Below are positions 5,455 through 51,453 of a DNA stretch of 64,000 nucleotides, one piece after another (position 1 is the first letter of the stretch; every line of letters begins with the position of its first letter). A program made the translations under genes and the position numbers. Where the stretch lies: IMG/VR virus record IMGVR_UViG_3300028024_000006, positions 8,238 through 72,237 of that record, one strand, 5' to 3'. The notes under the pieces are model-generated. The model was not told the origin of the DNA. It worked only from the letters and a program-made list of their open reading frames with translations, and searched no databases. This stretch comes from a virus.

Positions 5455-5496
5455 ATTTTCGAGTGCGGTTTTGCTCTTCTTGCCCGGCGTTTTCCT
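5455..5496 (-). promoter_or_regulatory. Putative late promoter (AGGAAAA-N29-GAAAAT) upstream of darB
   Basis: Motif and exact 29-nt spacing shared by 8 sites. Confidence 0.7.
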
Positions 5497-5532
5497 AGCT
5501 CTGACGGGCCTTGCAGCCCGCATGGAGCCCGC

Positions 5533-8500
5533 TTAATTCAGCGACTTGGACATTTCATCAACGTAGGCATTGATCGCAGCACGGGCCGCGTCCACCACCG
5601 CCGCATCGTCGCCGTACTTCTGGACAATCGCTTCGATGCGTTCCGACGGGTCGTTCGTCCACATGTCGATACGGCCTTCGGTGACGTCGCTCAGGAACGC
5701 GAGGTCAGCGGCGCGCAGCGGGTCGTCACCTTCGCCAGCGGCGGCGGGCACTGCGTTCGTACCTTCCGGTAGCGGCTGATCGACTGGCACAACCGGATCG
5801 ACGGCGGTCGAATCGAGTTCACCGGGCCACTCTTCGGCCATGACCGAGGTCACTTCGGCGGTGAGGTCCGGACGGTTCGCGATGATCCAGTTCGCGAGGG
5901 CGGCGCGCGTCACGCCGTCGATGTTGTCGGCGGCGAGCGAGTTGAGCACGCGATAGACGTCCACGCGGCGAAGTTCCGCGATGCTATCGGCAGAGACCTT
6001 GATGTAGTTTTCCATATCGACAGGGGCGGCAGGTTGTGCGCTTGCAGGCGCGGGTTCAGGGATTGGCTCAGGTGCGGGTTCCGGCGCAGCAGCAGGCACG
6101 AGTGGGGCGGCTTCCGGCTCGTCGGTTTCGGGTTGCCAGTCCGGGTCTTTCAGATAGCCAATCGGTGCGGCTTCCCAGTACAGGTCGAGTTCGACACCGT
6201 TGCGCACGAGTTCATCAATGCTGATATAGCCAATTTCGGCATCGTCGCGGCGTCCATTCAGGACCGCGAGGCCAAAAGCCTGCTTAGTCCCGTTGCCGGT
6301 CTTGTCCTTTTCCGTGATGTAGAAGTCAGAGCCGCCACTGAAATAGTGCAGGTATGCGACAGCGGAGAGGCCCTTGCCGTCCTGTTCGTAGGTCTTCGGC
6401 ATCATGTCGATAACGCCCGCCCACTCAATGGCCTTGTCGATGAAATGCTGGCCTTCCTCGCCCGCCATCATTTGCCCGATCACGCGGCGTTGCGCGCTTG
6501 GCATGAATGCGGTGAGGCGTTCGAGTGCTTTCATGCCCTTGCCGCGCGATGCCTGGCTGACCGGCTCCGGCTTCGCGTTGATGGCCGCCTGCCAGCTTTC
6601 GGCGCGGTCTATGTATTCCTGCGGGCTCGCTTCGAAAGCACGCATGGCAATGCCGACAGCGCCCGCGTTGGTCGAGCGCTTCGCATTCTTGAACGCGATT
6701 ACGTCTTCGTCGGAATATAGCTTCCAGCCCTTTGCGAGCGGCTGATATCCATTGTTTTCCGTGACGACCTTTCCATCGTGAACAAAGCCGGTATAAGGCC
6801 CGAGTTGCGCGAATTGCAGCTTGGGCGGCGCGGCTTCCGGCGCGATGCGCGCGTTGGCGGCGTTGGCCGTGTGCCATGCCTTCGTGTAAGCCGTCAGTAT
6901 GTCGTTGGTGCCGCCGCCCACCGGCAGGCCCGCAATCAACGGCATAACAGCGGGGTTGAGGGCAGGGGCCGAGCCAAGGCCGTCGGCGAATGCCTGCGCG
7001 CCCATTTCGGCGGCGCGCGCGATGCGCTCTTCGACGCTCAGGCCCGGCGCGGCTTCGGGTTCCGGCGTCGGCGCTTGGTACGCCGTGCTTGCCGCCCATT
7101 CCATCGTGCGGGTATTGAACGCGAGCGCAAGGTCATGCGCCGTGCCGTCGCGCGTGTCGATATCGAACACCGTATCAAAGCCGGACATGAGCGCGAGGTA
7201 ACGCGCAGTGTCATCGAACTGCGCGAACACGTAGCGATTGCCTTCCGGGTTAAGTTCGCCAGACGTGTCGCCGCCGCCTACGTCCTTTTTCACAGTGCCG
7301 TGTTCGGTCTTGATCCAGCCCAGGTCAGCCAGCGCGTCGAGCACCTGTTCGGACTTATGGGGCGGCTCGACGTAGACCGGCGCGGCCCCTTCCGGCATAC
7401 CCTTGGCGGCGAGCGCTTTCAGTTCGCCGTAGGTCTTGCCCTTGTTCAAATCTGCGAGTTGCGAGCCAATGCTTTCGTCGCGTTCCTGCGCGGACATTTC
7501 GAGGTAGGCAGGCAGGTACTCTGCGTCGATAGTTTGCAGAGCCATCGCGATTTGAGTCGCCTTGTCGGCGGCGAACACAGCCACCGCGCCGTTACTGCGG
7601 TTTTCAGTGATCGCTTGCGCCGCGCCTGCGTCGGACAGGTCGATAAGTGCGTAGAAGCGGCCTTCGAGCATTGGGCCATTGTCGAGCACCGTATCGCCGA
7701 CGAGCGGGCGCGGGGCGTTCATTACGAGCCAGCGAGAGGTATCGGCTATGCCATCGAAGGGCACTTCGGCAGATACCACGCCGGGCAGCGAATCGATGTC
7801 TACGGCGGCGGGCGCAGCAGCTTCCGGCTCTGCGGCAACTGCGACGACGGCGGCTGCATCCGGCTCTGCAAGCGCGGCGAAAAGGTCGTCAGCGGACGCG
7901 GCCACGGGGGCAGGCGCTTCGGCGACCGTATAGCCTGCCTCGCGCAGTTGTTGAATCGTGCCTTCTACCTGCGCATGAAGCACCTTGCCGGTGCCGTCTG
8001 TCTGTTCCGCAATGCTCTTCCATGCTTCCTGACCGGCAGCGGTCTCCGGGTAGAACGCCGTGAACATGTCATCCACCGCGCGATAGGTGATATCCGGCGC
8101 TCCATCGGCAGCAGGTACGGCAGCGACCGCTTCCGGGTCGATACCGACAGGCGTTTCGATGACCGGCTCAGGTTGCGGCACGACGACGGCGACCGGTTCG
8201 AGCGGCAGTTCCGGTTGCGCGGCGGCGGCAGCGGCGCGGGCGGCTTCTTCGGCGGCAATGCTCTCGCGCAGTGTCGCGAGGTAGCCGAGGCTCGTCTGAA
8301 TGTCGTCCGGGTGCATCTGCTTGAGCTTCGCGCGCAGGTCGTATTCATCGAGCTTGTCGCCGCCAGCAATGGAGGTCGGCTCATAGATCGCCATCTGACG
8401 CAGGTCTTCGAGGGAGAGTGCGTCAATCTGCGCATCGAGCGCGGCCTGAATGGCGTCGAGCGTGGCGTTGTCCTGATTGTCGATAGCGGTTTGCGCGACG

Positions 8501-9801
8501 GTCTTCTCGTCCGGCTCCATCGCAGCGGCAACCTGCGTTGCCAGCGGCACTTCCGGCTCTGCGGCAGCTTGCGGTTCCGGGTCTGCGGCCTTCGGCGGCT
8601 TCGTGGCGACCTTCACTTCGAGGTCTGCGATTTCAGACAGCAAGCCATTAAGGGTTTCGGTCTTCGTCTCGAATTCGCCCTTCAGCGTATCAATGGCTTC
8701 CATGACGGCGGCGCGCTTGGCGTTGGCCGTCTGGAATCGAGCGCTGTTCTTCTTCGCCAGCATCATGACGCGCGCGGCGACGCTGCGAACGTTGAGGTCG
8801 CGCCCGCGTTCCGGCGCAACAACAATCGTCACGTCCTTTTTGTTGAGCATCCATTTCCACGATACAAGCTCGTCGCTGGGCATGATCTTGCCTGGCGTCA
8901 CGTCCGGGTTATGGAAAAAGATGGTCAGGGTTTGCCCGTCGGACAGCTCGAAAATCGCCGCGATGTTGGTCGTGCCGTTGCGCTTGAACGGGTCCGTCAC
9001 CTGCATCGCGAGTACGGACAGGTCGCCGCCCACGCGATTGAGCAGCTTTTGCAGGATCGCCATCTGACGTTCGAGCTTCCGGTAGGGCAGCACGAGCGCA
9101 TCGAGTTGGATCACGCCGTCCGAGTCTTCGAGAATATCGGCCATCGTCACGGCGTCAAAAATCAGCACGTCATCCTTGTCGTGCTCGCGAATGGCGTACA
9201 GCACTTGTGCGAGGGTTGCGCCCTTCGGTTGCGGTTGTTCCGCGCTATCCCAAAGTACCTTTTCCATAGCCTTGCGTTCCTCGTTGGGGAGTTGTTCCGG
9301 CGTGAGGGGCTTCGACAGGTCGCCGTTCGCCATCCACCACTTGAGTTGATCGACGGTGCAGGCCACGCAGCTATTGAGGCCCGGCCATCCCGGTTTGAAG
9401 TTGCTTAGATAGACCGATTCCGCCGTGCGCCGGTCTGGAAATCCGATCATGACCTTGTGCTCGTCCCACGCACCGCGCACGAACTGATTGATGACGAACA
9501 CCTGATCGATTTCAGGGTAGGGGCCGATGTAGCAATCCAGTTCGTCACCGTCCGCGCCGGTCACGCCCGCGAAGCCGCCGTAATGCGCGGTTTGCAGGTT
9601 CTCGCCGCTTGTGCCGTCGTCCGCCGACCATTTGCGCATCGAGCCGCGCGGGTTCTCGATCACGACCGGGATGCCCTGAAACGAGCCATGACCTTTCGTG
9701 TAGTCGTCCGTTTCGCGCTGCGCGCGCGAGGGTTCCGGCAGCGTGTTCATGCCGTATGCGCCCGCGTGGGCGGCTTCGAAAAGTCGCGTAAAGGAGTCCA
9801 T
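5533..9801 (-). CDS. darA: DarA-like polyvalent head protein: N-terminal inorganic-pyrophosphatase-like domain, DarA_N-like domain, Pro/Ala linkers, DarA_C-like domain
   Basis: IENPRGS..YG..GADGDELD (PPase-like); FELSDGQTLTIFFHNPD..WKWMLNKKDVTIVVAPERG (DarA_N-like); AYLHYFSGGSDFYITEKD..EIGYISIDEL (DarA_C-like). ATG 9801 chosen from the promoter position. Confidence 0.82.
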   Translation of the reverse strand: MDSFTRLFEAAHAGAYGMNTLPEPSRAQRETDDYTKGHGSFQGIPVVIENPRGSMRKWSADDGTSGENLQTAHYGGFAGVTGADGDELDCYIGPYPEIDQVFVINQFVRGAWDEHKVMIGFPDRRTAESVYLSNFKPGWPGLNSCVACTVDQLKWWMANGDLSKPLTPEQLPNEERKAMEKVLWDSAEQPQPKGATLAQVLYAIREHDKDDVLIFDAVTMADILEDSDGVIQLDALVLPYRKLERQMAILQKLLNRVGGDLSVLAMQVTDPFKRNGTTNIAAIFELSDGQTLTIFFHNPDVTPGKIMPSDELVSWKWMLNKKDVTIVVAPERGRDLNVRSVAARVMMLAKKNSARFQTANAKRAAVMEAIDTLKGEFETKTETLNGLLSEIADLEVKVATKPPKAADPEPQAAAEPEVPLATQVAAAMEPDEKTVAQTAIDNQDNATLDAIQAALDAQIDALSLEDLRQMAIYEPTSIAGGDKLDEYDLRAKLKQMHPDDIQTSLGYLATLRESIAAEEAARAAAAAAQPELPLEPVAVVVPQPEPVIETPVGIDPEAVAAVPAADGAPDITYRAVDDMFTAFYPETAAGQEAWKSIAEQTDGTGKVLHAQVEGTIQQLREAGYTVAEAPAPVAASADDLFAALAEPDAAAVVAVAAEPEAAAPAAVDIDSLPGVVSAEVPFDGIADTSRWLVMNAPRPLVGDTVLDNGPMLEGRFYALIDLSDAGAAQAITENRSNGAVAVFAADKATQIAMALQTIDAEYLPAYLEMSAQERDESIGSQLADLNKGKTYGELKALAAKGMPEGAAPVYVEPPHKSEQVLDALADLGWIKTEHGTVKKDVGGGDTSGELNPEGNRYVFAQFDDTARYLALMSGFDTVFDIDTRDGTAHDLALAFNTRTMEWAASTAYQAPTPEPEAAPGLSVEERIARAAEMGAQAFADGLGSAPALNPAVMPLIAGLPVGGGTNDILTAYTKAWHTANAANARIAPEAAPPKLQFAQLGPYTGFVHDGKVVTENNGYQPLAKGWKLYSDEDVIAFKNAKRSTNAGAVGIAMRAFEASPQEYIDRAESWQAAINAKPEPVSQASRGKGMKALERLTAFMPSAQRRVIGQMMAGEEGQHFIDKAIEWAGVIDMMPKTYEQDGKGLSAVAYLHYFSGGSDFYITEKDKTGNGTKQAFGLAVLNGRRDDAEIGYISIDELVRNGVELDLYWEAAPIGYLKDPDWQPETDEPEAAPLVPAAAPEPAPEPIPEPAPASAQPAAPVDMENYIKVSADSIAELRRVDVYRVLNSLAADNIDGVTRAALANWIIANRPDLTAEVTSVMAEEWPGELDSTAVDPVVPVDQPLPEGTNAVPAAAGEGDDPLRAADLAFLSDVTEGRIDMWTNDPSERIEAIVQKYGDDAAVVDAARAAINAYVDEMSKSLN

Positions 9802-9807
9802 ACGGCC

Positions 9808-9849
9808 ATTGTCGGGGGCGGGCCGCGCGCGCCGGTCACGCGTTTTCCT
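9808..9849 (-). promoter_or_regulatory. Putative late promoter (AGGAAAA-N29-GACAAT) upstream of darA
   Basis: Shared motif and spacing; -10 lies 6 nt before the ATG. Confidence 0.7.
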
Positions 9850-9865
9850 ATCGAATAAATATCGC

Positions 9866-9895
9866 TTGCGCACTCATTCGTGAGCGCATACTATT
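9866..9895 (+). promoter_or_regulatory. Early sigma70 promoter/operator copy 1 (TTGCGC-17-TACTAT containing GTGAGCGCATACTATT)
   Basis: Near-consensus -35/-10, exact 16-mer repeated 4 times, heads a + strand operon. Confidence 0.8.
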
Positions 9896-9929
9896 CATGT
9901 CAAGGCGATATCAACAACGGGGTAATGAC

Positions 9930-10298
9930 ATGGCAACCGCAAAAGCAGTGATCGACGCAATGACTATCGAGGGCAGTCTCGACTACTCGAATGCAAAGTT
10001 GCTCACACCCACCGAGCTTGAACAGTCCATCAAGTTCAAGGAACGCGGTTTCAAGGTCATGATCGCTATCCGGCTTGATGCCGGTATCGAGGGCGACCAG
10101 GAGCGTTGCTACAGCGATGCAATTGTTGGCGCAATCCAGATCACGCAGGCCGATGCGCTTGACTTTGCACGCCGCGCCCTGAGCGACACCCTCGTTGCGA
10201 AGGGCGCGCGCTTCCGCTGCTACGTGACCACGGGCAAGGGTTACGACCGCAAGACCATGACGGATTTCGTCCGGCGCACGCTCTGGATTTCGCAGTAA
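9930..10298 (+). CDS. Hypothetical early protein
   Basis: First ORF after promoter; protein-like composition. Confidence 0.65.
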   Translation: MATAKAVIDAMTIEGSLDYSNAKLLTPTELEQSIKFKERGFKVMIAIRLDAGIEGDQERCYSDAIVGAIQITQADALDFARRALSDTLVAKGARFRCYVTTGKGYDRKTMTDFVRRTLWISQ

Positions 10299-10344
10299 CA
10301 ACCGCGCCCGCTTCGGCGGGCAATCATGATGGAATGAGGAAACC

Positions 10345-10680
10345 ATGCCAGAAAGATTCATCGGCTATAAACGCCTGACGTTCAAGTACAGCGAGGGCTA
10401 TAAGCATCTGGACCGCAGCGAATACCTTGGCACGTTCAAGGTGTTAGGCGGTGAGCGGCTACGCTGGAGTGACGATGGTGAGTCGCGTGATCGCAGGCTT
10501 ACCGTGGTCGCGCCGCGTGGCGTTGCCCCGCGTGATGCCGTCGCAGCAATCGAAGACGCCATGAGCTACGGATGCCAGTGCGAGCACGACTGTTGCGGTC
10601 ACTGGCAATCGCGGGCGCGGGCACGCAGGACGAAGGGCCGTGATTACGCAGTCGAAATTCACGAGTATCCGAACGTATGA
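10345..10680 (+). CDS. Hypothetical protein with CxCxxDCCGH motif
   Basis: GAGG RBS; Cys cluster. Confidence 0.65.
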   Translation: MPERFIGYKRLTFKYSEGYKHLDRSEYLGTFKVLGGERLRWSDDGESRDRRLTVVAPRGVAPRDAVAAIEDAMSYGCQCEHDCCGHWQSRARARRTKGRDYAVEIHEYPNV

Positions 10681-10718
10681 CCATCGCCCGCGCAGGCGGG
10701 CACTTAAGCGAGGAAACC

Positions 10719-11060
10719 ATGAAACTGAAAATCAGCAAAAAGATGCAATCGATCATCATGCCGGGCGAGCAGGACGGTGCGCCCTATGCTGGCCTGTCAG
10801 GTTGCGACACGATCCGCGATACCCTGCGCACCGCGTGGGCCGCTGGCGGGCTCGCGAAAGACGGCTCGACCGTGATTGAAGTCACCGAGGCCGAGGCGCA
10901 TATCCTCACCGAGCACGGCAAGCTGGCTATCGCCGAGTGCGAACTGAAGCTCGCCGAGTGCCAGACCGACGAGGAAAAGAAGCCGTTTTTCGGGCGTAAT
11001 TCGGCGTGGTCCGCGCTTCTACGGAGCATCGAAAAAGAGCGCGCGCCGCTGGCCGCTTGA
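10719..11060 (+). CDS. Hypothetical protein
   Basis: GAGG RBS before ATG 10719. Confidence 0.6.
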   Translation: MKLKISKKMQSIIMPGEQDGAPYAGLSGCDTIRDTLRTAWAAGGLAKDGSTVIEVTEAEAHILTEHGKLAIAECELKLAECQTDEEKKPFFGRNSAWSALLRSIEKERAPLAA

Positions 11061-11066
11061 AGGGAC

Positions 11067-11096
11067 TTGCACAATAATTCGTGAGCGCATACTATT
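11067..11096 (+). promoter_or_regulatory. Early promoter/operator copy 2 (TTGCAC-17-TACTAT)
   Basis: Exact 16-mer at 11081-11096. Confidence 0.8.
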
Positions 11097-11101
11097 GAGT
11101 C

Positions 11102-11668
11102 ATGTTCAACGAACGCAGCGAGCGCGCTATGTACCTTAAATCGAACGCACCGGAAATCAAGTGGATCATCGCCCATTCGGCAACGAACGATTTCGCGCGC
11201 TCCTGCGACGAATACCTGTTGAAGACTGGCACGCTCACGCAGCCGATGTTTGACGCCGTACGGCGCGGCCTGAGCCCCGCTGCTGCGCCGGTTGACGTGT
11301 CCGGCGTGTCGCGCGTAGTCGAAGCGTTCGCGAACGCCACAGCGAGCGGCCTGAAAAAGCCGAAAATGTACCTGGGCGATTTCCTGTTCAAGCTCGCGCC
11401 GGCGACGGGCCGTAACAAGGGCGCGATTTACGTGACGGAAGAGGGCGCGTACCTTGGCAAGATCGCCGAGGGCAAGTTCCACGCCGCGCGCGAATGCACC
11501 GAAGCGCAGAGGGCCGCGATTGTGGCCGTGTGCGCCGCCCCGAAGAAAGCCGCCGAGGCATTCGGGCAGGAAACGGGCCGTTGCTCATGCTGCGGGCTCG
11601 AACTGACGGACCCGGTAAGCATCGCAAACAGCATCGGGCCGATTTGTGCGGGCCGATATGGCTTTTAG
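11102..11668 (+). CDS. DUF6011-like protein with C-terminal Zn finger
   Basis: GRCSCCGLELTDPVSIANSIGPICA. Confidence 0.7.
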   Translation: MFNERSERAMYLKSNAPEIKWIIAHSATNDFARSCDEYLLKTGTLTQPMFDAVRRGLSPAAAPVDVSGVSRVVEAFANATASGLKKPKMYLGDFLFKLAPATGRNKGAIYVTEEGAYLGKIAEGKFHAARECTEAQRAAIVAVCAAPKKAAEAFGQETGRCSCCGLELTDPVSIANSIGPICAGRYGF

Positions 11669-11685
11669 ACAGCAGGGGAGAATGA

Positions 11686-11853
11686 GTGGCAACACGAACC
11701 AAAGAGCCGCCGCTTTCCATCGTGAAGCGGCACAAGACAGTGCTCGCAGCAGCCAAGGCCGCGAAGAGCACGACGACCGCAACCCCGCGCACGAGCGCGC
11801 CGGAACCGAAGTTCCGCACTGTGCTCGCGCCTAATGCGAACTGGCCGACATGA
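11686..11853 (+). CDS. Small basic hypothetical protein (55 aa, not in track)
   Basis: GGGGAG RBS, GTG start MATRTKEPP..., ATGA overlap with next gene. Confidence 0.5.
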   Translation: MATRTKEPPLSIVKRHKTVLAAAKAAKSTTTATPRTSAPEPKFRTVLAPNANWPT

Positions 11854-12086
11854 GCGAAAAGAAACTGACTGTTGACGAAGTGATGGCGAAGACGTTTGCA
11901 CCGGAAACCGGTCGCGAGCCCCGCAGCAATGCTTACAGGGCGGGCGTTCGCGCCATGCTGGCGCTTCATATCGACGGCATTCAGCCGAGCATCCCCTACT
12001 GGGTCGGAAGTGCGGAGTTCGATGCGTACTTCGCTGGCCGCGAGGAAGGCAAGGCGATTGTGAAAACCTTGGAAGCCGACAAATGA
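11850..12086 (+). CDS. Hypothetical protein
   Basis: Start/stop-coupled in operon. Confidence 0.65.
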   Translation: MSEKKLTVDEVMAKTFAPETGREPRSNAYRAGVRAMLALHIDGIQPSIPYWVGSAEFDAYFAGREEGKAIVKTLEADK

Positions 12087-12316
12087 CACCGCAGGAACTA
12101 TTCGACTTCGCAAGCGGCTTTAGGCATCCGACCCGGAGCTATCCGACGGTGCGCGAAGCCGCGAAGCATTTCCGCACCACGCAGAGAGCCGTGATTGATG
12201 CGTGCGAAGACTGGCAGGGCGACGGCTACATGAAGCCCGCGACCGGCATCAAGGTCGGCAGCGGAATCGGCTCTTTTGATCGGCAAGGCGATTATCTTGT
12301 GGAGGCATACAAGTGA
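12083..12316 (+). CDS. Hypothetical protein, possible HTH (PTVREAAKHF)
   Basis: Coupled ORF. Confidence 0.6.
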   Translation: MTPQELFDFASGFRHPTRSYPTVREAAKHFRTTQRAVIDACEDWQGDGYMKPATGIKVGSGIGSFDRQGDYLVEAYK

Positions 12317-12636
12317 GTGATTCAGAGAGCGGCCTTGTCCTGCTGGACGACGGCGAATACTTCGTGCAGCACAACATCAACTATCCGCCGACGGCTGGCA
12401 ATGGCTTTCTCATGCGCCGCTGCGAACTTTCGCTGACCTCGCCAGAAGGCGCGGAGTGCGTCGGCGGCTATGAATTGAAGGTGGACGGAAAGTGGCTCTC
12501 GGATATTCACACGTACCACGACCCCCGCACCGATTCGGATTGCAGGGTTCTCGGTAGGTTTGACAGCCGCAATGACGCGATTCACTCGCTCTGGCAGCAC
12601 CGGCACGAGGCGCTAACCCGCCACCCGCGACACTGA
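12313..12636 (+). CDS. Hypothetical protein
   Basis: GTGA overlap. Confidence 0.6.
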   Translation: MSDSESGLVLLDDGEYFVQHNINYPPTAGNGFLMRRCELSLTSPEGAECVGGYELKVDGKWLSDIHTYHDPRTDSDCRVLGRFDSRNDAIHSLWQHRHEALTRHPRH

Positions 12637-12678
12637 CATAAGGCGGCCTGCCAGCGGGCCGTTCGCACGAGAACTGAC

Positions 12679-13035
12679 ATGCATGCACACTTCGACACCA
12701 TCGAGCGCGAGCTACGCGCCGCCATCGAGAGCGCCACGGACCAGGGCGAACTGATGGACCGGCTCGAACGCCTCATAAACGACGCCAAGGGCGCGCGGTT
12801 CATCGCGGGCATGGCCGTGTTCGGCAAGCAGTTCAAGCCGGGCGGCGAGCCCGCGCCCGTGCTCGAAGGCGTCGAGCCGCCGCCGCGCCGCTTCGAAGAG
12901 GGCGACAAGGTACGCACGAAAGAGGGGTATCTCGCGCACGTCGGATACTATGACGGCAAGGATAACGTCGTGGTAAATGTCGTGTTCCAGGCGGCAGAAT
13001 ACAAGGAGCAGGACTTGAGTCCGTCACCGCTATGA
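12679..13035 (+). CDS. Hypothetical protein, possible C-terminal KOW/SH3-like barrel
   Basis: FEEGDKVRTKEGYLAHV. Confidence 0.6.
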   Translation: MHAHFDTIERELRAAIESATDQGELMDRLERLINDAKGARFIAGMAVFGKQFKPGGEPAPVLEGVEPPPRRFEEGDKVRTKEGYLAHVGYYDGKDNVVVNVVFQAAEYKEQDLSPSPL

Positions 13036-13214
13036 GCTATCGCCTGAACAAGAATGCTCAACGGATGCTAGAAAAAGTCTGCGGCGCGGATGCCGTGGGC
13101 GAAGACTGGGTTTCGTTCGAGTGCATAACCATCCCCCTTTCTAGCCGCGCGTGCAAGGAATTGAACGAGCAGGCGAAGGAACATTACCCCGAGTTGAGCA
13201 ACAAAGAGGATTGA
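13032..13214 (+). CDS. Hypothetical protein
   Basis: ATGA overlap. Confidence 0.5.
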   Translation: MSYRLNKNAQRMLEKVCGADAVGEDWVSFECITIPLSSRACKELNEQAKEHYPELSNKED

Positions 13215-13217
13215 AGG

Positions 13218-13439
13218 ATGGTCAGGCTACGAATCAATGATGAACCGATGACGCCCGCCGAACGCCGCCGTCGCAGCGACGCCGAGCGCGCCGCGCGTGG
13301 CGAGCAGCGCGTAACGGCCTGGCTCACCGCCGAGGCATCCGCTGCACTCGACGCTATGGTCGGCCCGAAGAAAGCGCGCGCAGAACTGGCGAAGGTCTTG
13401 AGTGAGGCCGTCATCTACTACCAACGGAAGAAACGCTGA
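13218..13439 (+). CDS. Small DNA-binding protein, ribbon-helix-helix-like
   Basis: MTPAERRRRSDAERAARGEQRVTAWLTAEASAALDAM. Confidence 0.6.
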   Translation: MVRLRINDEPMTPAERRRRSDAERAARGEQRVTAWLTAEASAALDAMVGPKKARAELAKVLSEAVIYYQRKKR

Positions 13440-13771
13440 TGCTGCGCTATAACACCTTCGCCGGGGCAACGGCGACCGTCGGCCCCGCCGAGAATGTGAA
13501 AGTGCCCACGCTTGCGGAGTTCAAGCGCGCCATTGCGGCGGTATCCGGGCAGTTTTCATCGTGGGAAGCGCAGTTCCAGTCGTTTGCCGAGCAGCACGGC
13601 TGCGACCTTGAAGCGGGCAGCGTCATGATTCTGCCGACCGGCTTTGACGTGCGGGACATTCCGCCGCGCTACCGGAACAGGCAGGTGTTGATTGCCGAGC
13701 AGCCCACCGATGGCGTCATCTTTCTGCGCAATCCGCACGGCGAGCCGCCGACTATCCCGCCCACGGACTAA
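13439..13771 (+). CDS. Hypothetical protein
   Basis: TGATG coupling; converges on the structural genes. Confidence 0.55.
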   Translation: MLRYNTFAGATATVGPAENVKVPTLAEFKRAIAAVSGQFSSWEAQFQSFAEQHGCDLEAGSVMILPTGFDVRDIPPRYRNRQVLIAEQPTDGVIFLRNPHGEPPTIPPTD

Positions 13772-14249
13772 GGCTGTGCAGGTCGTCGCGCGGCGCGATG
13801 ACGTATTTCGTCGTGTACGGGAAAATCGAGACGGTCGTCGGCAGCTTCAGGATTTCGAACGCAATCACGACCCCGCCGCCCGGCATCGCGGCCACAAGGT
13901 CATACTTCTTGATTTCGACAGGCGGGGAGGCGACTGATGCAATCAGCGCTTCCTGCATGTCCGAGCCCGGCACGAACGAATCCTCGCGGTCGGTCGTATC
14001 AAGCTCCCCATCAAAGCGGCTCACAATCAGCAGCTTCACTTCGCCGACTTCCTGATACTCGTACTGGTCTTCGTCTTCCGGCGTGAGCACGCCCAGCCCG
14101 CCGAGCGTGGGCGCGCCGCCCATCATTTCGCCGGTCGTATTCGTGCGCTTGAATACCTTGCGATAGATCGTCGCATCCATTGACTGCGGATGCTTGAGCG
14201 CGACCGTGTTGGCCGCTTCCATGACCTTGCGCGGAATCTCGTTAATCAT
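13752..14249 (-). CDS. P1-like virion morphogenesis protein (unassigned)
   Basis: Last gene of the - strand structural operon. Confidence 0.55.
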   Translation of the reverse strand: MINEIPRKVMEAANTVALKHPQSMDATIYRKVFKRTNTTGEMMGGAPTLGGLGVLTPEDEDQYEYQEVGEVKLLIVSRFDGELDTTDREDSFVPGSDMQEALIASVASPPVEIKKYDLVAAMPGGGVVIAFEILKLPTTVSIFPYTTKYVIAPRDDLHSLSPWAG

Positions 14250-15322
14250 TTGACTTTACCCAGGTTGGCAATGGCTGTATCGAACATGGTCTGCGTGATC
14301 GCGCCCAGTTGCAGGGCCGCTTGCAGGCCCGCGATGGCCTTCTTTGTCGCCGCCGATACCTGTGCAGGCGTCGGGTTATTCGGCAGCTTCTCTGCGGCCT
14401 TCTTAGCCATCTTATTGCGCGCCTTGACCTTGGCTGTCTGTTCGGCCTTCACTGCCTTCGAGCTTCGCCGCAGGTTCGTGCTTTGGGTACTCTTCGCCGC
14501 CTGTTCGTCGGCATGTGCGCGCAGCTCTGCCGCCTTCACTCGCTCGACCTTCAGCAGCTTTTTGTCGAGCACGGCACGCGCTTTGACGACCTGATCGGCG
14601 ATGCGATTGTGTATTGCCGCGTCTCTCAGGATGACGTGCATCGTCCGCAGGACATGTTTGCACGCGACGCCCTGCAACTTGGGGTTCCTGATCTTCGGAT
14701 AGCCGGTTTCCGGTCGGGAATAATTGTAGTGTCCGATGGTGGCGATGTACCGGAACCAGTAGCGATGTCTGCCGCAGTCGCAATTGAACTTCAGTTTGCC
14801 TTTCGCGACGGCCTTGCCGATTTTCTTAGGGTCGAGCTTCGATGCTGCGACCTCACTCTCAAAGTCCATGAATTCGACGTGGACATGGTGCCGGGAAACG
14901 TCAGAATCCGGCCCACTGTTGGTGACGAAGTGGAACACATCGGCTTTGACCGCGACGGGGACTGACGTACGAATTTCCGCATTCGCGCGCTTACGGTCGG
15001 TATCAAGCGACAGGTCGATGACGTCCTGTGCCGTGATGCCGCCCGTAAAGCGGCGATCCTTTTTCAGCCGCGCTATGTTCTGCTGGAACGCGCGTATATC
15101 CGCATGCGTGATCGGGCGCAGAGTGCCGCGCCGAGTCGTCATGAGAAGCCGCCCGGCGTCGTATTCGCCCGAGACCTCGTTCGGCTTCAGGATCGTATTC
15201 GCCGCCTGCCGCTGTTCGAGGTCCGCGCTCTCGCGCTCGCGGGCTTCCTTTGCCGCCGAGGTCGGGCGGGCCGTAGCCCGCCTTCTCAGCATGTCATGCA
15301 GCAGATTCGAATCGATGGGCAT
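14246..15322 (-). CDS. P1 gp25-like tail protein with SWIM-type Zn finger
   Basis: FNCDCGRHRYWFRY...PKIRNPKLQGVACKHV. Confidence 0.7.
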   Translation of the reverse strand: MPIDSNLLHDMLRRRATARPTSAAKEARERESADLEQRQAANTILKPNEVSGEYDAGRLLMTTRRGTLRPITHADIRAFQQNIARLKKDRRFTGGITAQDVIDLSLDTDRKRANAEIRTSVPVAVKADVFHFVTNSGPDSDVSRHHVHVEFMDFESEVAASKLDPKKIGKAVAKGKLKFNCDCGRHRYWFRYIATIGHYNYSRPETGYPKIRNPKLQGVACKHVLRTMHVILRDAAIHNRIADQVVKARAVLDKKLLKVERVKAAELRAHADEQAAKSTQSTNLRRSSKAVKAEQTAKVKARNKMAKKAAEKLPNNPTPAQVSAATKKAIAGLQAALQLGAITQTMFDTAIANLGKVK

Positions 15323-15326
15323 TCGC

Positions 15327-15644
15327 TTAATCCAGTGACGCGTAAGCCGAGCTTTCTGCGTCGCTCAGATACCCGGTCTGCTTTTTTATGGTCGCCAGTT
15401 GCGCGGTCGTCGGCATAACGAGCAGTTGTTCGGGCAATACCTGTTCGAGCGTATCGAGCCCCGCCGCCGCGAAGGGCACGAGATAGAGCGAGCGGTCGCC
15501 ATATACCCGCTGCGCGACAAGCGTCAGGTCAAGACGCTCGTCAGGCTTCGAGTGATAGCGAACGGCATCCGACCAAACCGGCGTTTGCACGGCGAATTTG
15601 CGGATCGCGCGAACGAACGCGGCGGTAGCGGTTTCCGAAGGCAT
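15327..15644 (-). CDS. Small baseplate protein (P1 gp7/tail-X-like)
   Basis: PDERLDLTLVAQRVYG; position in operon. Confidence 0.55.
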   Translation of the reverse strand: MPSETATAAFVRAIRKFAVQTPVWSDAVRYHSKPDERLDLTLVAQRVYGDRSLYLVPFAAAGLDTLEQVLPEQLLVMPTTAQLATIKKQTGYLSDAESSAYASLD

Positions 15645-16387: not shown

Positions 16388-16399
16388 GATGGTCGGTCC

Positions 16400-17911: not shown

Positions 17912-17932
17912 TCCTTGAATTCGATCCTCTGA

Positions 17933-17974
17933 ATTCTCGGTGTGGATTTACCCCGTCAGGCGGCGCGTTTTCCT
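17933..17974 (-). promoter_or_regulatory. Putative late promoter (AGGAAAA-N29-GAGAAT) upstream of tail fibre
   Basis: Shared motif and spacing, intergenic. Confidence 0.7.
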
Positions 17975-17977
17975 AGC

Positions 17978-20091: not shown

Positions 20092-20100
20092 GTGAATTCC

Positions 20101-21432: not shown

Positions 21433-21435
21433 CGC

Positions 21436-22866: not shown

Positions 22867-23159
22867 TACGAAGTCGTTCCTACGTCGATTTTCGAGCCGT
22901 TCACGTCGATATAAATACGCAGCTTGTCCACGCCGTCCGGTTCCGAGTACAGATTGATCGCACCGCGCGGAAGCGCGCCAAGGATCGGCACGTCGGCGCG
23001 CAACTTGGCAATGACAGCATCGGCCAGCCCCGCGCGCAGCGGCGTTTGCAGCAGGTCCGTCACGGTCTGCCCGTAGCCACTGCCGAGATAGCCATTCAGC
23101 GGCGTCGCAAGCCAGTGCGAAACCATGCTTTGAATGTCGGTGGACGAGATTTTTCCCAT
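22866..23159 (-). CDS. P1 gp26-like baseplate protein (gp25/W-like wedge initiator)
   Basis: MVSHWLATPLNGYLGSGYG..KLRADVP; ATG 23159 lies 6 nt after the -10. Confidence 0.7.
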   Translation of the reverse strand: MGKISSTDIQSMVSHWLATPLNGYLGSGYGQTVTDLLQTPLRAGLADAVIAKLRADVPILGALPRGAINLYSEPDGVDKLRIYIDVNGSKIDVGTTS

Positions 23160-23165
23160 GGCCTG

Positions 23166-23207
23166 ATGGTAAATGCGGATCAACGCCTATCAGCGCCGCG
23201 TTTTCCT
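23166..23207 (-). promoter_or_regulatory. Putative late promoter (AGGAAAA-N29-TACCAT) heading the baseplate operon
   Basis: Shared motif and spacing. Confidence 0.7.
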
Positions 23208-23231
23208 GATGCATATTTATTGCCCTGCCTA

Positions 23232-46544: not shown

Positions 46545-47113
46545 GATTCCCCCGCCTGCCGACTGACACGGATTGCATGCTCGACTTCCTCGCTCAGGAT
46601 CGAGAACGCCAGAAACGTGCTTTCGCCGGTCCATAAACCATTTCTCAGCGGCGCACGCGCACGCGTTATGCAGGCTTCGAGTTCATTCGTGCGGTAACGC
46701 TTGCTCACGCTATCGTTCGCGATCATGTGCTCGACCTGATCGGCCAGCACACCGAAGAAGAAGCGCACGAGTGCGCGTTCGCCGTTCCCGGATGCGACCA
46801 GAAAGCCGCCGTAGCGGATCGCTTCCTGAAGCGTCGGCACGGTGTTCACGAGAACCCGGCGCTTGAGTGCGTGCTGAAACTCCGTATCGCGTATCCGGCG
46901 CATGGCATCGCGCAGGCGAGACGAGTCATATGCCGTGCCATTGCGGTCGCCCGCGAACGTCTGCATGTTTTCGAGCAGCAGGCACACGTCAGCAAATTCA
47001 GCCAGCCAGCGATTGGCATCAGCCATTTGCAGGCGGTACGATTCGAGCGCGCAGGCGTCGGCGCGCTTCTTCTCGCGTCGGTCGCCCCATGCCTTCAGGG
47101 CGCGGCGGATCAT
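46541..47113 (-). CDS. Hypothetical protein
   Basis: Coupled ORF. Confidence 0.55.
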   Translation of the reverse strand: MIRRALKAWGDRREKKRADACALESYRLQMADANRWLAEFADVCLLLENMQTFAGDRNGTAYDSSRLRDAMRRIRDTEFQHALKRRVLVNTVPTLQEAIRYGGFLVASGNGERALVRFFFGVLADQVEHMIANDSVSKRYRTNELEACITRARAPLRNGLWTGESTFLAFSILSEEVEHAIRVSRQAGES

Positions 47114-47556
47114 GCCGGACCCCCGACCTTCGCGAGCGCCGCCGCGATCACGCGCCGCCCGTAGGCTTCGAGAATCGCATTGCCGTGGTCGCCGGGCTCG
47201 ACATTCGCGAGCACGTCTTCGCTCTTCATCGCGTCATAGATCGCGATCATTTCCGGGCCGGTCATGGCGTTGGCCGCGTCGCGAATATGACGATCGGTCT
47301 GCAATGAGCGAATCACGAACAGCGCGAGCGCATCGGCGTCGGGGAATCCCTCGCTCACGTTGAGCGTCACCCCGCTTTGATCGATGCTCAGGCGCAGCAC
47401 AACGCCGGGCGCGCCGCCATCGCTATAGTTCAGCGTCATTACCACGTCCGGCAGGTCCATCATGGCCGCGTACTTCGCGAGGCTATCGGTCAGTTCCGTT
47501 GCGAAGCTGATCGGCGCGGGCTCAGGCGCGGGCGGCTCGCCCGATACGAATTCCAT
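47110..47556 (-). CDS. Hypothetical protein
   Basis: Coupled ORF; start uncertain. Confidence 0.5.
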   Translation of the reverse strand: MEFVSGEPPAPEPAPISFATELTDSLAKYAAMMDLPDVVMTLNYSDGGAPGVVLRLSIDQSGVTLNVSEGFPDADALALFVIRSLQTDRHIRDAANAMTGPEMIAIYDAMKSEDVLANVEPGDHGNAILEAYGRRVIAAALAKVGGPA

Positions 47557-47983
47557 CGGGCACGGACCACGGCTGCACTCGATAGCTTCGCCCCCCGGTG
47601 CACGTCTTCCCGCAGCGCTTGCAGGCGTAATGCCCGACAGGCGACGGCGGGAAGTCGCCCGGCTCGCTTGCGGCCCGGATCATGGAGATGAGGGCAGGCT
47701 CCGAGGGGAACAGTACTTCGGGCGCGATGACCGGCTGAACCTTGCCCTCAACAATACGCAGCTTGCCGTTAGCCCACGAGTCTTCCATGTCGAGCGAGTC
47801 AGGCTTGCCGGTCATAACAGCATGGTCTTTGACGTCCGCCCAGTTCATGTCGTTACGCGCCCAGTCAACGAGAGCATCGTCGTCCGCCTCTTCGCCGTAG
47901 TGCGCCTGATAGGACATGGCGACAGCTAAAATCGGAATGGCCCACGTCGAGCCGTCCAGTGCTTCGAGTTCGAGATATCTCAT
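47522..47983 (-). CDS. Hypothetical protein
   Basis: ATGA overlap. Confidence 0.55.
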   Translation of the reverse strand: MRYLELEALDGSTWAIPILAVAMSYQAHYGEEADDDALVDWARNDMNWADVKDHAVMTGKPDSLDMEDSWANGKLRIVEGKVQPVIAPEVLFPSEPALISMIRAASEPGDFPPSPVGHYACKRCGKTCTGGRSYRVQPWSVPDGIRIGRAARA

Positions 47984-48237
47984 TGCTTCGGCTCCTGAAG
48001 TGCGAGGGTCTGTTCAACGGCGCGGCGGATGCCTTCGAGCAGCATCCGGCGTTCGGGAGTGGTTTCCACGCTCAGGCCGTCTTCGGCAATCGCCTGGATG
48101 ACGAGCAGGTGATCGGCATCCGCGCCGAGCACGATGGACGTTTCAATGCCTTTCACAAGGCCCGCGCGCTTGAACAGTCCGCCGAGCGCGTCAGAGGGCG
48201 TAGCGTTGCGCGTGATCGGGATAGCCTTCGTGTTCAT
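47980..48237 (-). CDS. Hypothetical protein
   Basis: ATGA overlap. Confidence 0.55.
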   Translation of the reverse strand: MNTKAIPITRNATPSDALGGLFKRAGLVKGIETSIVLGADADHLLVIQAIAEDGLSVETTPERRMLLEGIRRAVEQTLALQEPKQ

Positions 48238-48614
48238 GCTGCGAGCCCCTTGGCAGCGTCCTGCACGGCCTGCTGGGCGGCGGCAGCAGTTACGGCATTA
48301 CGCACGACTTCGAGGCCCACGCCGGGCGGCAGGAGCACCACGCGCGGCATGGCGACGCCATTCGCAGCCGTATCCTTCGCGAACACGTCGCGCAGGACAT
48401 CGGAGTACTTCTTGAAAATGTCATACGACGTGTCCGGTGAAGAGATGAACGCGACCGTATTGCCGTCAGCGGCATGCACCTTCACGGCGGCGAGCACCTG
48501 TTCAAGCGTGGTGGCGACCGTATCGACGGTTTCGACTGCGACTTCGGCCTTCTTCTGGCCGGTGATCGCGAGCGCGGCCTTGACGGCAGCGAGGATGGCG
48601 TGGATGGCTTTCAT
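48234..48614 (-). CDS. Ala/Val-rich hypothetical protein
   Basis: AGGA RBS; may be late/virion-associated. Confidence 0.6.
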   Translation of the reverse strand: MKAIHAILAAVKAALAITGQKKAEVAVETVDTVATTLEQVLAAVKVHAADGNTVAFISSPDTSYDIFKKYSDVLRDVFAKDTAANGVAMPRVVLLPPGVGLEVVRNAVTAAAAQQAVQDAAKGLAA

Positions 48615-48623
48615 GGGTTCCTG

Positions 48624-48995
48624 TTACGGTTGACTTGCGGTGGCCTTCGCTTCGGCCTTCTTTGCCTCACGGCGAGCCCTGCTTTTCGCTTTGAGCTTTT
48701 CCTGATTGCGCATGTAGTACTCGCGCTTCTTTTCGAGAATCGCGGCCCGGTTGCGCTTGTAATGCCGCCGTACTGCTTCACTCACGACGGCCCGATATCC
48801 AGCCGGGTCGCGCTCCTGCGCCTTGGCGGCGTGCTTCTCCTTGTAGGCCGGTGCGCACTCGACGCATGTCCCATTCAGGTGACGCTTTGCTACATGGCCG
48901 CGCTTGCACGCCCGGCCCGTGAAATAGAACTTCAGGTCGCGCGCTTTTGCGTCAGCACGGCTGATTATTTCGTGTGTTTCTTCAGGGAGTGACAT
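48624..48995 (-). CDS. Zn-binding basic protein resembling the N-terminal module of phage HNH nucleases, no nuclease domain
   Basis: FYFTGRACKRGHVAKRHLNGTCVEC. Confidence 0.6.
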   Translation of the reverse strand: MSLPEETHEIISRADAKARDLKFYFTGRACKRGHVAKRHLNGTCVECAPAYKEKHAAKAQERDPAGYRAVVSEAVRRHYKRNRAAILEKKREYYMRNQEKLKAKSRARREAKKAEAKATASQP

Positions 48996-49005
48996 GCGTT
49001 TTCCT
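48964..49005 (-). promoter_or_regulatory. Putative late promoter (AGGAAAA-N29-AATAAT) overlapping the start of the previous ORF
   Basis: Shared motif and spacing, but -10 lies in coding sequence. Confidence 0.45.
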
Positions 49006-50539
49006 AAGCGTTTTCGCCCAATTCTTCGAGCATCTTCCGGCGCGTCTCGTCCATATCGGAGCCGCCGACGACGGGCGCGGATGCATCGCCCGATACCGAG
49101 TAGTGCGCGCTTTCGAGGAACGGGAACGAGCACGAATCCCATATGTCCGGCGACGGGATGCCCTCTGTTTTCATGTCCTCTTTTTTCATAATCACGCGAC
49201 GGCCTTTCTCGTCGTAGTGGTAGGGGATTCGCGAACCTTGTAGAACCAGACGCTTGAGAAAACCGGGCTCAATGTCGGCGTCAATGCCGAAGCGGCCCGT
49301 CTCGACCGCACGGGCGATGCCGCACATGGCCTGCGCACGCTGGTTTAGATAACGCTCCTTGTATTCACGGGCGAAGTTGGGCGCACCCCACTTGACCTTG
49401 ATGTAGTTAGAAAAGCCGTCGAGATCGAGTTGCTTGCACACGACGAGGCCCAAGCCCAGCGCGTCGATGATCGGCGTGCTGTTGTCGTGCTCGCCCCACT
49501 GGTGCAGGACGTGCCCGTGTACCTGCGCGGGGTCGATGCCGCCCGACGCGAGAATGACTTTCTTCAGTTGCACGCGGCGCGGGTCTTCGCCGTACTCGCC
49601 CATGCCGGTGACCTGCATACCGACCATGACCGTTTCATCGCGCCAGCCACCGCCGCCGATATCGAGCGGCAGCATCCAGCCCCATGCGTCTTCCGGTGCG
49701 ATAACGGTCTTGCCGATGCACCTGCGGATCGCTTCGGGGCCAAGCAGGTACTTCGAACTGTTCTCAGGGAACCGGCCCTGCACCTTGATCGCGTACTCTT
49801 CAGCGGTGTACTGCGCGCGCTTTTCCGCGATGAACGCCGCCGAGACAATCGGGGAGAACTCGCTGTTGAATACCAGGGCGTTCCACGCGCCGCCCTCTTC
49901 CGCCGACAACGCATGGTGCGTATCGAAGAAAAAGCCCGTGTTGCGGGTCGGCTGTGACGCGAGCGCCATGCGGTTGCGCGAGTCGGTCAGCGAGCCCGTG
50001 ATAACGGCGAAGTTCGGGTCAGGGATGCCGCTTGCCTCGTCGGCGAGCCATAGCAGCCAGTCGCGGTGGGTGCCTGCGAGGTTTTCCGGGGAGCCGCGCG
50101 GGGCCGACTTCGCCACGCAGAACCAGTTCAGCTTGAATCCCTTGACGAATACCTTCTCGGATTCAATCTCGAAGTACTGGCGAATCCAGCCCTGCGGCCC
50201 GTCGGCGACCTTCTGCGAGAGGTCGGCGAATTCCTTCCATATGCCGTCATGCACCGTCTTGAGCTTCGGCGCAGTAATGAACGTGTTCGAGAGCTTGAAA
50301 CAGAGTAGATGCCAAAACGCGATGATCGCGAAGCCTGACGTCTTACCCGTACCGTGGCCGGACGATGCCGACGTGCGCGAGCCGGGCGGCGAGACACTAT
50401 CGAATAGCTCGATCTGCTGATGCGTGGGCGACTCCAGTCCGCACACTTCAATAGCGAAGCGCGTAATGTCGAACGCATACCGTTGGACGAATCCAAGGTA
50501 GCGCCCGTCATCAACCAGCGTGCGGACCTTGTTCGCCAT
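49004..50539 (-). CDS. pacB: Terminase large subunit, P1 PacB-like
   Basis: SGHGTGKT Walker A, LADEASG Walker B, LDIGGG and SPDIWDS nuclease motifs. Confidence 0.92.
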   Translation of the reverse strand: MANKVRTLVDDGRYLGFVQRYAFDITRFAIEVCGLESPTHQQIELFDSVSPPGSRTSASSGHGTGKTSGFAIIAFWHLLCFKLSNTFITAPKLKTVHDGIWKEFADLSQKVADGPQGWIRQYFEIESEKVFVKGFKLNWFCVAKSAPRGSPENLAGTHRDWLLWLADEASGIPDPNFAVITGSLTDSRNRMALASQPTRNTGFFFDTHHALSAEEGGAWNALVFNSEFSPIVSAAFIAEKRAQYTAEEYAIKVQGRFPENSSKYLLGPEAIRRCIGKTVIAPEDAWGWMLPLDIGGGGWRDETVMVGMQVTGMGEYGEDPRRVQLKKVILASGGIDPAQVHGHVLHQWGEHDNSTPIIDALGLGLVVCKQLDLDGFSNYIKVKWGAPNFAREYKERYLNQRAQAMCGIARAVETGRFGIDADIEPGFLKRLVLQGSRIPYHYDEKGRRVIMKKEDMKTEGIPSPDIWDSCSFPFLESAHYSVSGDASAPVVGGSDMDETRRKMLEELGENA

Positions 50540-51387
50540 TACTCAGCGTCGTCCGGCTTCACCTGCCCTGCCGTGCCCGGAACAATGCCGGTGAGCTTGC
50601 GCGTGAGTGCCGCCTGTTTCGCCGCCGCCGCCGCACGAATACCTTGCTCGTAAATGTCATCGAGCTTGGCGTTATCGGTGGTTGTGATATCCGCCACAAC
50701 GGTCTGTTCGATCTGATCCTTCCACCCGGCGATATTCTTCAGCGCAAAGTTGACGACACGCGGCTCGTAAGTGCCTTCCAGTCCACCCTCCGTTAGGAGA
50801 GCAGTCTGAAGGTCTTTCGCGCGCGTATACGTGTATAAAAATTCGGGGTGTACCGGGGTGCCGTCTTCATTCTTTTCCTCTGCCCAGTTGCTCAGGGTGA
50901 GGCGCGTTACCCCGATCTTCGAGGCGAAACGTTCGAGCGTCGGGAACTTGTTCTTCACGACGATGGTTTCGAGGATCGGCTGGCCGTCCTTGTCCACGAT
51001 GGTATTGCCGTCCTTGTCCTTACGGGCGGTCTGTTCAGTGCGTTCGGTTTCGATGTTGAAGTAGGCGATCATCTGCGGGATGAAGTCGTCCGAGTACTTG
51101 GTCGGGCGTCCTACTGCGCGCTTGGCTTCCCCTACGAGGTCCGTAACAGACTGGCCTGCGGATGCAGTGGCCTTTGCCTTGTCCTGTGCGGTCGTCTTGC
51201 CTTTCCCCTTGGGCGCGGCCTTCTTTGCTGGTACAGGCGTCTTTGCCGCGACCTTGCGCGCCGCCGTTTTCTTCACGGCGGGTTGCTTGGGTGCGGCTTT
51301 CTTCGCGGCATGCTTCGGCACAGGTTTGCGTGCGGGCTTGGGCGCGGTCTTCCGGGCGGGCTTCTTCGGCGGTTGCTTGTCGGTCAT
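50539..51387 (-). CDS. Terminase small subunit with histone-H1-like N-terminal extension
   Basis: Directly upstream of TerL; GRPTKY..FPTLERFASKIGV..NFALKN. Confidence 0.75.
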   Translation of the reverse strand: MTDKQPPKKPARKTAPKPARKPVPKHAAKKAAPKQPAVKKTAARKVAAKTPVPAKKAAPKGKGKTTAQDKAKATASAGQSVTDLVGEAKRAVGRPTKYSDDFIPQMIAYFNIETERTEQTARKDKDGNTIVDKDGQPILETIVVKNKFPTLERFASKIGVTRLTLSNWAEEKNEDGTPVHPEFLYTYTRAKDLQTALLTEGGLEGTYEPRVVNFALKNIAGWKDQIEQTVVADITTTDNAKLDDIYEQGIRAAAAAKQAALTRKLTGIVPGTAGQVKPDDAE

Positions 51388-51411
51388 GGCGTGTGTTCCC
51401 TCTCCCTACCG

Positions 51412-51453
51412 ATGGTGAATGACACCGGCAGGGGTTCGAGCTTCGGTTTTCCT
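51412..51453 (-). promoter_or_regulatory. Putative late promoter (AGGAAAA-N29-CACCAT) upstream of terminase
   Basis: Shared motif and spacing, intergenic. Confidence 0.68.

Follow-up and report, generated by a model that had tools for sequence, protein, structure and literature searches.

Putative late promoters with a sigma70-type −10 element and an asymmetric box at −44, most likely read by a phage-encoded activator, in a temperate phage with P1-like virion genes

Detailed knowledge of late-gene control is limited to a few model phages, which employ Q (lambda), Ogr (P2), Mor/C (Mu), Lpa (P1) or gp55/33 (T4). P1 uses a 9-bp box AAGTGACTT, the ‘−22 box’, located 4 nucleotides (nt) upstream of the −10 element. 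The Ogr site of P2 is a dyad (TGT-N12-ACA) near −55, and the delta gene of P4, a transactivator gene in a second element, sits in the sid operon behind a late-type promoter. The Mor/C proteins of Mu bind a 16-bp imperfect dyad that is centred at −43.5 and overlaps the −35 position of promoters with a −10 but no −35 element (PMC4390567, PMC2582627). We analyzed a stretch of 64,000 nt (“the window”; positions 8238-72237 of the single 94,463-bp virus record IMGVR_UViG_3300028024_000006, 60% G+C), for which a preliminary description had proposed a regulon of late promoters, each with a box (A/C)GGAAAA exactly 29 nt upstream of a −10-like hexamer. In our overall reading, to which we assign a probability of roughly 0.7, these would be the late promoters of a temperate phage, combining a sigma70-type −10 element with a box at −44 that is read by a phage activator, most likely a helix-turn-helix (HTH) protein.

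All eight boxes of the preliminary description were recovered at their positions on the minus strand (Table 1), each exactly 29 nt before its hexamer, and the four AGGAAAA copies it had set aside as negative controls (25755, 48697, 23917 and about 53015) indeed lack a NANNNT hexamer at that distance. The proposed two-block motif search gave the same picture on a larger scale, with a pattern that is enriched genome-wide and kept in relatives. Across the whole 94,463-bp genome, [AC]GGAAAA-N29-NANNNT occurs 14 times on the minus strand and never on the plus strand, where 0.86 ± 0.88 copies (maximum 3) are expected from 100 first-order Markov simulations. A scan of all spacings between 10 and 44 nt identified 29 nt as the sole enriched distance, with 14 matches compared to four or fewer at any other spacing (mean about 1.4). 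The sequence GGAAAACGC is present in 11 minus-strand and no plus-strand copies, and the motif in the phage genome is restricted to the late-gene strand. A regulon of activator-type late promoters, forming a real two-part promoter class, is very probable.

We give next to no weight to the idea that chance, ribosome-binding sites or coding constraint produced the pattern. It draws on three copies of the 10-mer AGGAAAACGC that precede the start codons of three genes by 0-3 nt (window 48995-49006; genome 89867 and 5453), two of which also have a NANNNT hexamer 29 nt downstream, and on the copy at 48999-49005, where the hexamer AATAAT falls inside conserved Ile-Ile codons. Most copies lie between genes, however, and have no start codon close to the box, and the excess over expectation, the restriction to one strand, the single sharp spacing peak and the conservation of the pattern across diverged spacers in six relatives all speak against such an origin. 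We therefore rejected it for the set as a whole; it may apply to the copy at 48999 and to a similar internal copy at the start of the g5-like gene, outside the window.

We aligned 33 sites, either orthologous or analogous, for whose choice the positions given with counts below were not used. The alignment shows that the 7-mer of the preliminary description is the core of a longer box of 11 nt, T-AGGAAAA-CGC, with a conserved T at −1 and CGC at +8 to +10 of the core (full consensus TAGGAAAACGC). Numbered with the hexamer as −12 to −7, T-49 is found in 27/33 sites, A-48 in 31/33, and C-41, G-40 and C-39 in 24-27/33, while the columns flanking the box carry little information. The spacer, described before as unconserved, has largely diverged, but weakly kept positions are present at G-32 (25/33), C-19 (23/33) and C-16 (26/33), along with A-richness between −24 and −21. 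The hexamer (consensus G/T-A-n-A-A-T) has an invariant A-11 and T-7, G (24/33) or T (8/33) at −12, and A at −9 (26/33) and −8 (24/33). The reported absence of a −35 element was borne out, since the best TTGACA match averages 2.1/6 in these sites versus 2.3 in random sequence. No TG of an extended −10 element (−15/−14) was found in the 33 aligned sites, and a generic sigma70 consensus scan recovered none of the promoter sites, as expected in the absence of a −35 element.

The assignment of the hexamer as −10 follows from two promoters with a start codon close behind. The darA-like gene and the first gene of the baseplate operon, which is small and conserved, both have their ATG 6 nt past the hexamer in this phage and 6-7 nt past it in every genome having the promoter, and the encoded N-termini are conserved (MD..F...AAHAGAYG in G001 and G003; M.KI...D.Q.MVS.WL in G001, G003 and G005). 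A ribosome-binding site does not fit into this gap. Transcription must therefore begin at the ATG or right beside it, which implies that both mRNAs would be leaderless. As this is where a sigma70-type −10 element would put the start site, the hexamer is best taken as the −10 element, which places the box at −49 to −39 with its centre at −44. The start predicted by the preliminary description, about 6-7 nt after the hexamer, agrees with these start codons.

A different assignment, which we consider very improbable, takes GGAAAAC as the −35-type element of an alternative, extracytoplasmic function (ECF)-like sigma factor, with an A-rich block 16-17 nt downstream as its −10 element and the hexamer at +29 as incidental. 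GGAAC-like −35 elements are typical of ECF sigma factors, and spacer positions 18-22 do contain a weak A-rich block. This middle block is missing in several promoters, though, whereas A-11 and T-7 are invariant and the distance of 6-7 nt between hexamer and ATG is conserved. In addition, no match to sigma region 2 (Sigma70_r2) was found in the phage (G000) or in the relatives G001, G002 and G003, where Sigma70_r4_2 gave sub-threshold HTH-like matches only.

With the hexamer as −10 element, the layout comes close to that of Mu. Both systems have a −10 without a −35 element, share one site among several dispersed late promoters and place that site almost identically (−44 here, −43.5 in Mu). The position of the box is that of Mor/C, so the layout of an activator site at −44 plus a −10 element is not new. 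The preliminary description had placed the binding site of Mu C upstream of −35, which is incorrect, as the published site centred at −43.5 overlaps −35 (PMC4390567, PMC2582627). Mu sites differ in being dyads bound by a dimer, while the box analyzed here is an asymmetric 11-mer without an inverted half-site. By analogy, the mechanism most likely resembles that of Mu, with the activator replacing the −35 contact.

The relatives compared are G001, G003, G005 (a prophage of Paraburkholderia sp. J10-1 on contig NZ_CAJMYW010000003.1, at about 205-275 kb), G006 and G007, the latter two being found via the HTH protein. Their terminases are 62-81% identical to that of the phage, with 81% in G001 and about 62% in G003. 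Orthologous late operons in all five keep the box, the fixed spacing and the −10 element, while the spacer diverges. Counts on the late-gene strand and the other strand are 16/0 for G001 (2/0 for a reversed-pattern control), 7/2 for G003, 15/2 for G006 and 5/0 for G007. The spacing peaks at 29 nt in G001 and G003, with a minor shoulder at 30, and G005 contains six sites at orthologous operons, the spacing being 30 nt in two. The more distant G002 (IMGVR_UViG_3300015615_001207; 69% G+C, terminase identity 42%) has no AGGAAAA box. It contains about 11 sites with CGGTAA(C/G), a fixed gap of 28 nt and a −10-like hexamer, and most of these have an ATG 5-7 nt after the hexamer (e.g., 60809, 57372, 42996, 25848 and 18709), implying that leaderless late mRNAs would be widespread in this virus. 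The changed box at the same place indicates that the layout is old and that the box sequence evolves. In the 9.1-Mb Paraburkholderia host genome, the strict pattern has two matches, one of them within its prophage; the loose pattern is uninformative there (115 matches versus 73 in the control). The box set is thus not a host regulon.

These comparisons also bear on the possibility, which we regard as improbable, that no phage activator is involved and that the A-tract at −45 to −42 serves as a proximal UP-element subsite for the host alpha C-terminal domain in constitutive −10-only promoters. The AAAA lies inside the range of that subsite, which Estrem and colleagues are said to have placed at −46 to −38 in 1999. 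Yet the G+C flanks (T-AGG and CGC) are as invariant as the A-tract, the box of G002 has no A-tract at the same position, the host genome contains no such regulon and the motif is limited to late operons. Background on UP elements is given in PMC4390567.

The finding that most copies head virion or packaging genes could be confirmed for the eight window sites and extended by the portal, major capsid and bplB-like tail copies outside the window. The promoters precede the kinds of operons that have annotated late promoters in P1 (LPpro, LP23, LPdar, LPs, LPsit and LPpac), with prt, capsid gene 23, dar, the tail fibre gene S, the bplA/baseplate operon and pac as P1 counterparts of the headed operons. 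A tblastn search with P1 proteins revealed distant homologues (20-41% identity) of the portal protein, DarB, DarA, gp25, pro, BplA, PacB, PmgG, gp21, the sheath, the major capsid protein, Hdf, gp5 and BplB. The early module is lambdoid, with CI-like and Cro-like genes, replication O-like genes, YbcO, a RusA-like resolvase, NinB and HNH. The phage is most likely a temperate phage of the Paraburkholderia type, in which P1-like virion and Dar genes are joined to a lambdoid early module; the nearest relative borne by an isolate is the prophage of Paraburkholderia sp. J10-1. The two ends of the record (genome 92929-94463 and 1-1171) together encode a sit-like tail protein of about 870 amino acids (aa), so the record represents the genome in circularly permuted form.

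The likeness to P1 Lpa thus includes the same kinds of virion, packaging and Dar operons and promoters with a −10 element only. The P1 box AAGTGACTT itself is not present, as positions −26 to −17 of the 33 sites contain weak A-richness plus C at −19 and −16. Lpa was also sought directly. P1 Lpa matches phrog_1704, but the genome has no match to phrog_1704 at E≤10 and no tblastn match to Lpa. Mor/C (PF08765) and Ogr/Delta (PF04606) likewise have no match at E≤10 in the phage, G001, G002 and G003. As each defining protein was sought and not found, the system falls outside the Mor/C, Lpa and Ogr families. About 60 proteins, most of them early or without known function, were scanned against PHROG and Pfam, and the only other regulator candidate was a Cro-like protein of 77 aa. 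CI/Cro was rejected as binder of the box, as the CI-like protein is unrelated to the HTH candidate and, of the relatives, which keep the late box, G001 alone gave a match to the 12-mer TAGGGAAACTGAT, in one copy.

The best candidate is a 230-aa XRE-type HTH protein, and we see an even chance that it is the activator reading the box. All complete motif-bearing genomes keep, as non-structural proteins, a CI-like repressor, YbcO, a weakly conserved 109-aa protein, an unannotated 142-aa protein encoded beside darB, and this HTH protein, which is the only DNA-binding-type regulator kept besides the CI-like repressor. Its gene is the last regulator gene of a nin-like delayed-early operon, directly upstream of the terminase promoter. 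This position just upstream of pacA, where P1 has lpa, is conserved in relatives and adds to the likeness with P1. In the Acinetobacter and Psychrobacter relatives, with terminases that are 35-40% identical, neither Lpa nor the HTH gene is encoded within 10 kb of the terminase. The HTH protein scores just above the cut-off for Pfam HTH_3 (23.4 bits) and matches the 434 repressor (phmmer, E=1e-5), with 434 cI, TP901-1 CI, SinR and C proteins as top Foldseek matches. Its long helical C-terminal domain has no structural match by Foldseek. The recognition helix reads NS(S/T)Q(L/I)S in genomes with the AGGAAAA box versus AAVHLS in G002. With known XRE activators (lambda CI at PRM, controller C proteins of restriction-modification systems and ClgR), the candidate shares the 434-cI-like HTH fold; these activate from sites that adjoin or overlap −35. 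Their operators are palindromes bound by dimers, however, and the long helical C-terminal domain is unique to the candidate.

Homologues of the HTH protein occur in Paraburkholderia, Caballeronia, Cupriavidus and Pseudoduganella; one that is 75% identical is encoded on a 92-kb contig of a Paraburkholderia sediminicola strain. Outside P1-like phages they are found on chromosomal islands that encode AlpA, a primase or a relaxase, along with defence cargo and virion genes as copies or fragments. Six island loci were compared, and the same promoter type precedes the HTH operon in four of them, in unrelated contexts (L175-L178; islands of Paraburkholderia and Pseudoduganella and a metagenome contig). 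The island promoter consists of T(T/A)GGAAA(A/G)C, 29 nt, GAGCAT, CATTAT or GATCAT and then a shared leader. AlpA, Toprim/DUF927 primase or Mob_Pre relaxase genes, ANT-domain genes and defence-like cargo neighbour the HTH genes, including type I restriction-modification systems in L175 and L176. L176 and L177 contain near-complete pmgG-like copies, 86% and 61% identical to the phage gene, and L175 and L176 encode fragments of the sit-like gene. The islands may be satellite-like elements or decayed prophages. The ANT/KilAC proteins encoded near the island homologues were rejected as the shared factor, being absent from the phage and G001. Like P2 Ogr and P4 Delta, the system would use one activator for dispersed late operons without a −35 element, and the island homologues, like P4 delta, lie behind the same promoter type. 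Unlike P2, it has no Ogr/Delta protein, and the sequence and position of the box differ.

Several points weigh against our reading. The box is asymmetric, but the usual target of an XRE-type HTH protein is a palindrome bound by a dimer. The homologues of L175 and L176 have a markedly altered recognition helix, yet the same box is found close by. An activator made early would not normally be encoded in a late virion cluster with a late-type promoter in front, but this is where the HTH gene is located in some elements. The relatives share a phylogeny, so the co-occurrence of box and HTH gene provides weak statistics, and the 10-mer AGGAAAACGC is also the ribosome-binding context of three genes. 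Among the sequencing runs searched, the DNA was found solely in its source soil metagenome and in no RNA run. The first three points, together with the many early proteins without a family match, could be accommodated if the promoter class is real and another unrecognised phage protein is the activator (e.g., a small unannotated early protein or a conserved protein of 109 or 173 aa), the HTH protein then having another role, such as early-gene shut-off or packaging. We consider this possible but rather unlikely, since few non-structural families besides the HTH protein are common to all motif-bearing genomes, and YbcO, the CI-like repressor and the 109-aa protein are all absent from the promoter-bearing island loci.

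In the proposed mechanism with the HTH protein as activator, the sigma70-type RNA polymerase of the host would use the hexamer as −10 element, while the asymmetric 11-bp box at a distance of 29 nt (rarely 30) would substitute for the −35 element. A phage-encoded activator, most likely the 230-aa HTH protein, would read the box and recruit or position the polymerase, as Mor/C does in Mu. Ten to eleven promoters of this kind would drive the operons for portal, capsid, tail, baseplate, tail fibre, terminase, DarA and DarB as well as an accessory cassette; at two of them, transcription would start at the A of the start codon and give leaderless mRNA. We infer late timing, start sites, activator dependence and the identity of the activator from the DNA sequence. 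The preliminary description had also claimed a distinct activator-dependent class, which agrees with our results as far as P1 Lpa and P2 Ogr are concerned (no such genes, no −22 box). The position of the box, in contrast, was already known from Mu, and two members of the class as described are less clear, as the copy at 48999 is doubtful and the one at 30761 heads no conserved reading frame. Its statement that no description of this box was known agrees with our literature search, which found none. The novelty would therefore reside in the asymmetric box sequence, and the regulator family is probably new too.

Table 1. Positions of the putative promoter copies and of the candidate activator gene (window coordinates unless given as genome coordinates).
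Feature	Coordinates	Strand	Box	−10 hexamer	Details
darB late promoter	5455-5497	−	TAGGAAAACGC, 5487-5497, then 26 more spacer nt	GAAAAT, 5455-5460	predicted +1 near 5448; darB ATG at 5421
darA-like late promoter	9799-9850	−	9840-9850	GACAAT, 9808-9813	ATG 9799-9801
Tail-fibre operon late promoter	17933-17975	−	17965-17975	GAGAAT, 17933-17938	
Baseplate (bplA-like) operon promoter	23157-23208	−	CAGGAAAACGC, 23198-23208	TACCAT, 23166-23171	ATG 23157-23159
Same-class promoter	30726-30768	−	TCGGAAAACGC	TAAAGT	
Esterase-cassette promoter	43795-43837	−	TAGGAAAAGCC	GAGAAT	
Doubtful copy	48964-49006	−	TAGGAAAACGC	AATAAT	
Terminase (pacA-like/pacB) promoter	51412-51454	−	TAGGAAAACCG	CACCAT	pacA ATG 51387
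Candidate activator gene P0001	51760-52452	−			230-aa XRE-type HTH protein, helical C-terminal domain
Portal operon copy	genome 3712-3718	−			outside window; strong
Major capsid copy	genome 88993-88999	−			outside window; strong
bplB-like tail operon copy	genome 92334-92340	−			outside window; strong

The individual copies differ in how well they are supported by neighbouring genes and relatives. The darB and tail-fibre promoters both have orthologous sites in G001, G003 and G005, and darB is homologous to its P1 counterpart, as is DarA. The −10 hexamer of the darB promoter is flanked by an 8-bp inverted repeat, CCGCACTC / GAGTGCGG (window 5442-5471), which is kept in G001, G003 and G005 with compensating changes and has a terminator-like hairpin score on the plus strand; it could represent an operator or an element that controls read-through. 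Within the set, box and −10 element are weakest in the terminase promoter, and the gene behind it gives small-terminase PHROG matches. It is present in G001 and was not seen in G003, where pacA abuts the HTH gene. The esterase cassette is missing from the relatives.

The copy at 48999-49005 is doubtful as a promoter. Its TAG ends the pacB reading frame, and its AGGA serves as ribosome-binding site for the gene that follows (ATG 48995). It is kept in G001, G003 and G004, for which coding constraint could account. The promoter at 30726-30768 heads about 250 nt (window 30470-30725, minus strand) with conserved blocks shared with G001 and G003 (ACCGCAGCGCGAAGTC, GGATTCGCGCACC and GGTGGATAAC..TTATGT), ending at a terminator-like hairpin (30473-30511). 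The same leader precedes a gene in G001 and G003 that is missing from the phage. Neither in the window nor in the region behind this promoter did scans for Rfam families and tRNAs yield anything meaningful.

Some further sequence elements lie close to these promoters. A near-palindrome, ATGCGCTCACGA(A/T)TGAG(T/A)GCGCAAGCG, is located just upstream of the darA-like promoter and the one at 30761 (window 9870-9900 and 30780-30830) and also occurs in G001; it probably represents an operator of divergent early promoters. A hairpin, GGACGGGGTTCCGTCC, lies in the major capsid leader (genome 88,900-88,960, outside the window) and is kept in G001 and G005, and similar hairpins follow two other promoter-like sites in G001 (76221 and 79168). 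Two inverted AGGAAAA boxes (54419-54425 on the plus and 54447-54453 on the minus strand) are found in an AT-rich gap before the RusA-like gene (window 54400-54453), adjoining the 12-mer TAGGGAAACTGAT, which G001 has at this place only. This region may be an internal promoter or control site of the sub-operon ending with the HTH gene. A BrnT/BrnA type II toxin-antitoxin pair is encoded between the portal and DarB regions (genome 5569-6121, outside the window).

The analysis provides a testable late regulon for a clade of large temperate Burkholderiaceae phages with P1-like virion genes, offering a precise consensus, a predicted start for each promoter, natural variants including one with a changed box, and a specific candidate for the activator. 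Related prophages can be annotated with this consensus for late operons and accessory ‘moron’ cassettes, and inducible expression tools for Burkholderia-type hosts can be built on it. It also lets one ask whether islands with the same promoter and regulator exploit helper phages. We tentatively suggest that the HTH proteins form an undescribed family of phage late-gene activators of about 230-290 aa, in which an XRE-type HTH is combined with a long helical domain and reads an 11-bp box at −44. If so, this activator family would be widespread in prophages of Paraburkholderia, Caballeronia, Cupriavidus and Pseudoduganella, the pair of protein and promoter would also reside on chromosomal islands with defence cargo and pieces of virion genes, and phages and islands could cross-activate each other, as P2 and P4 do.

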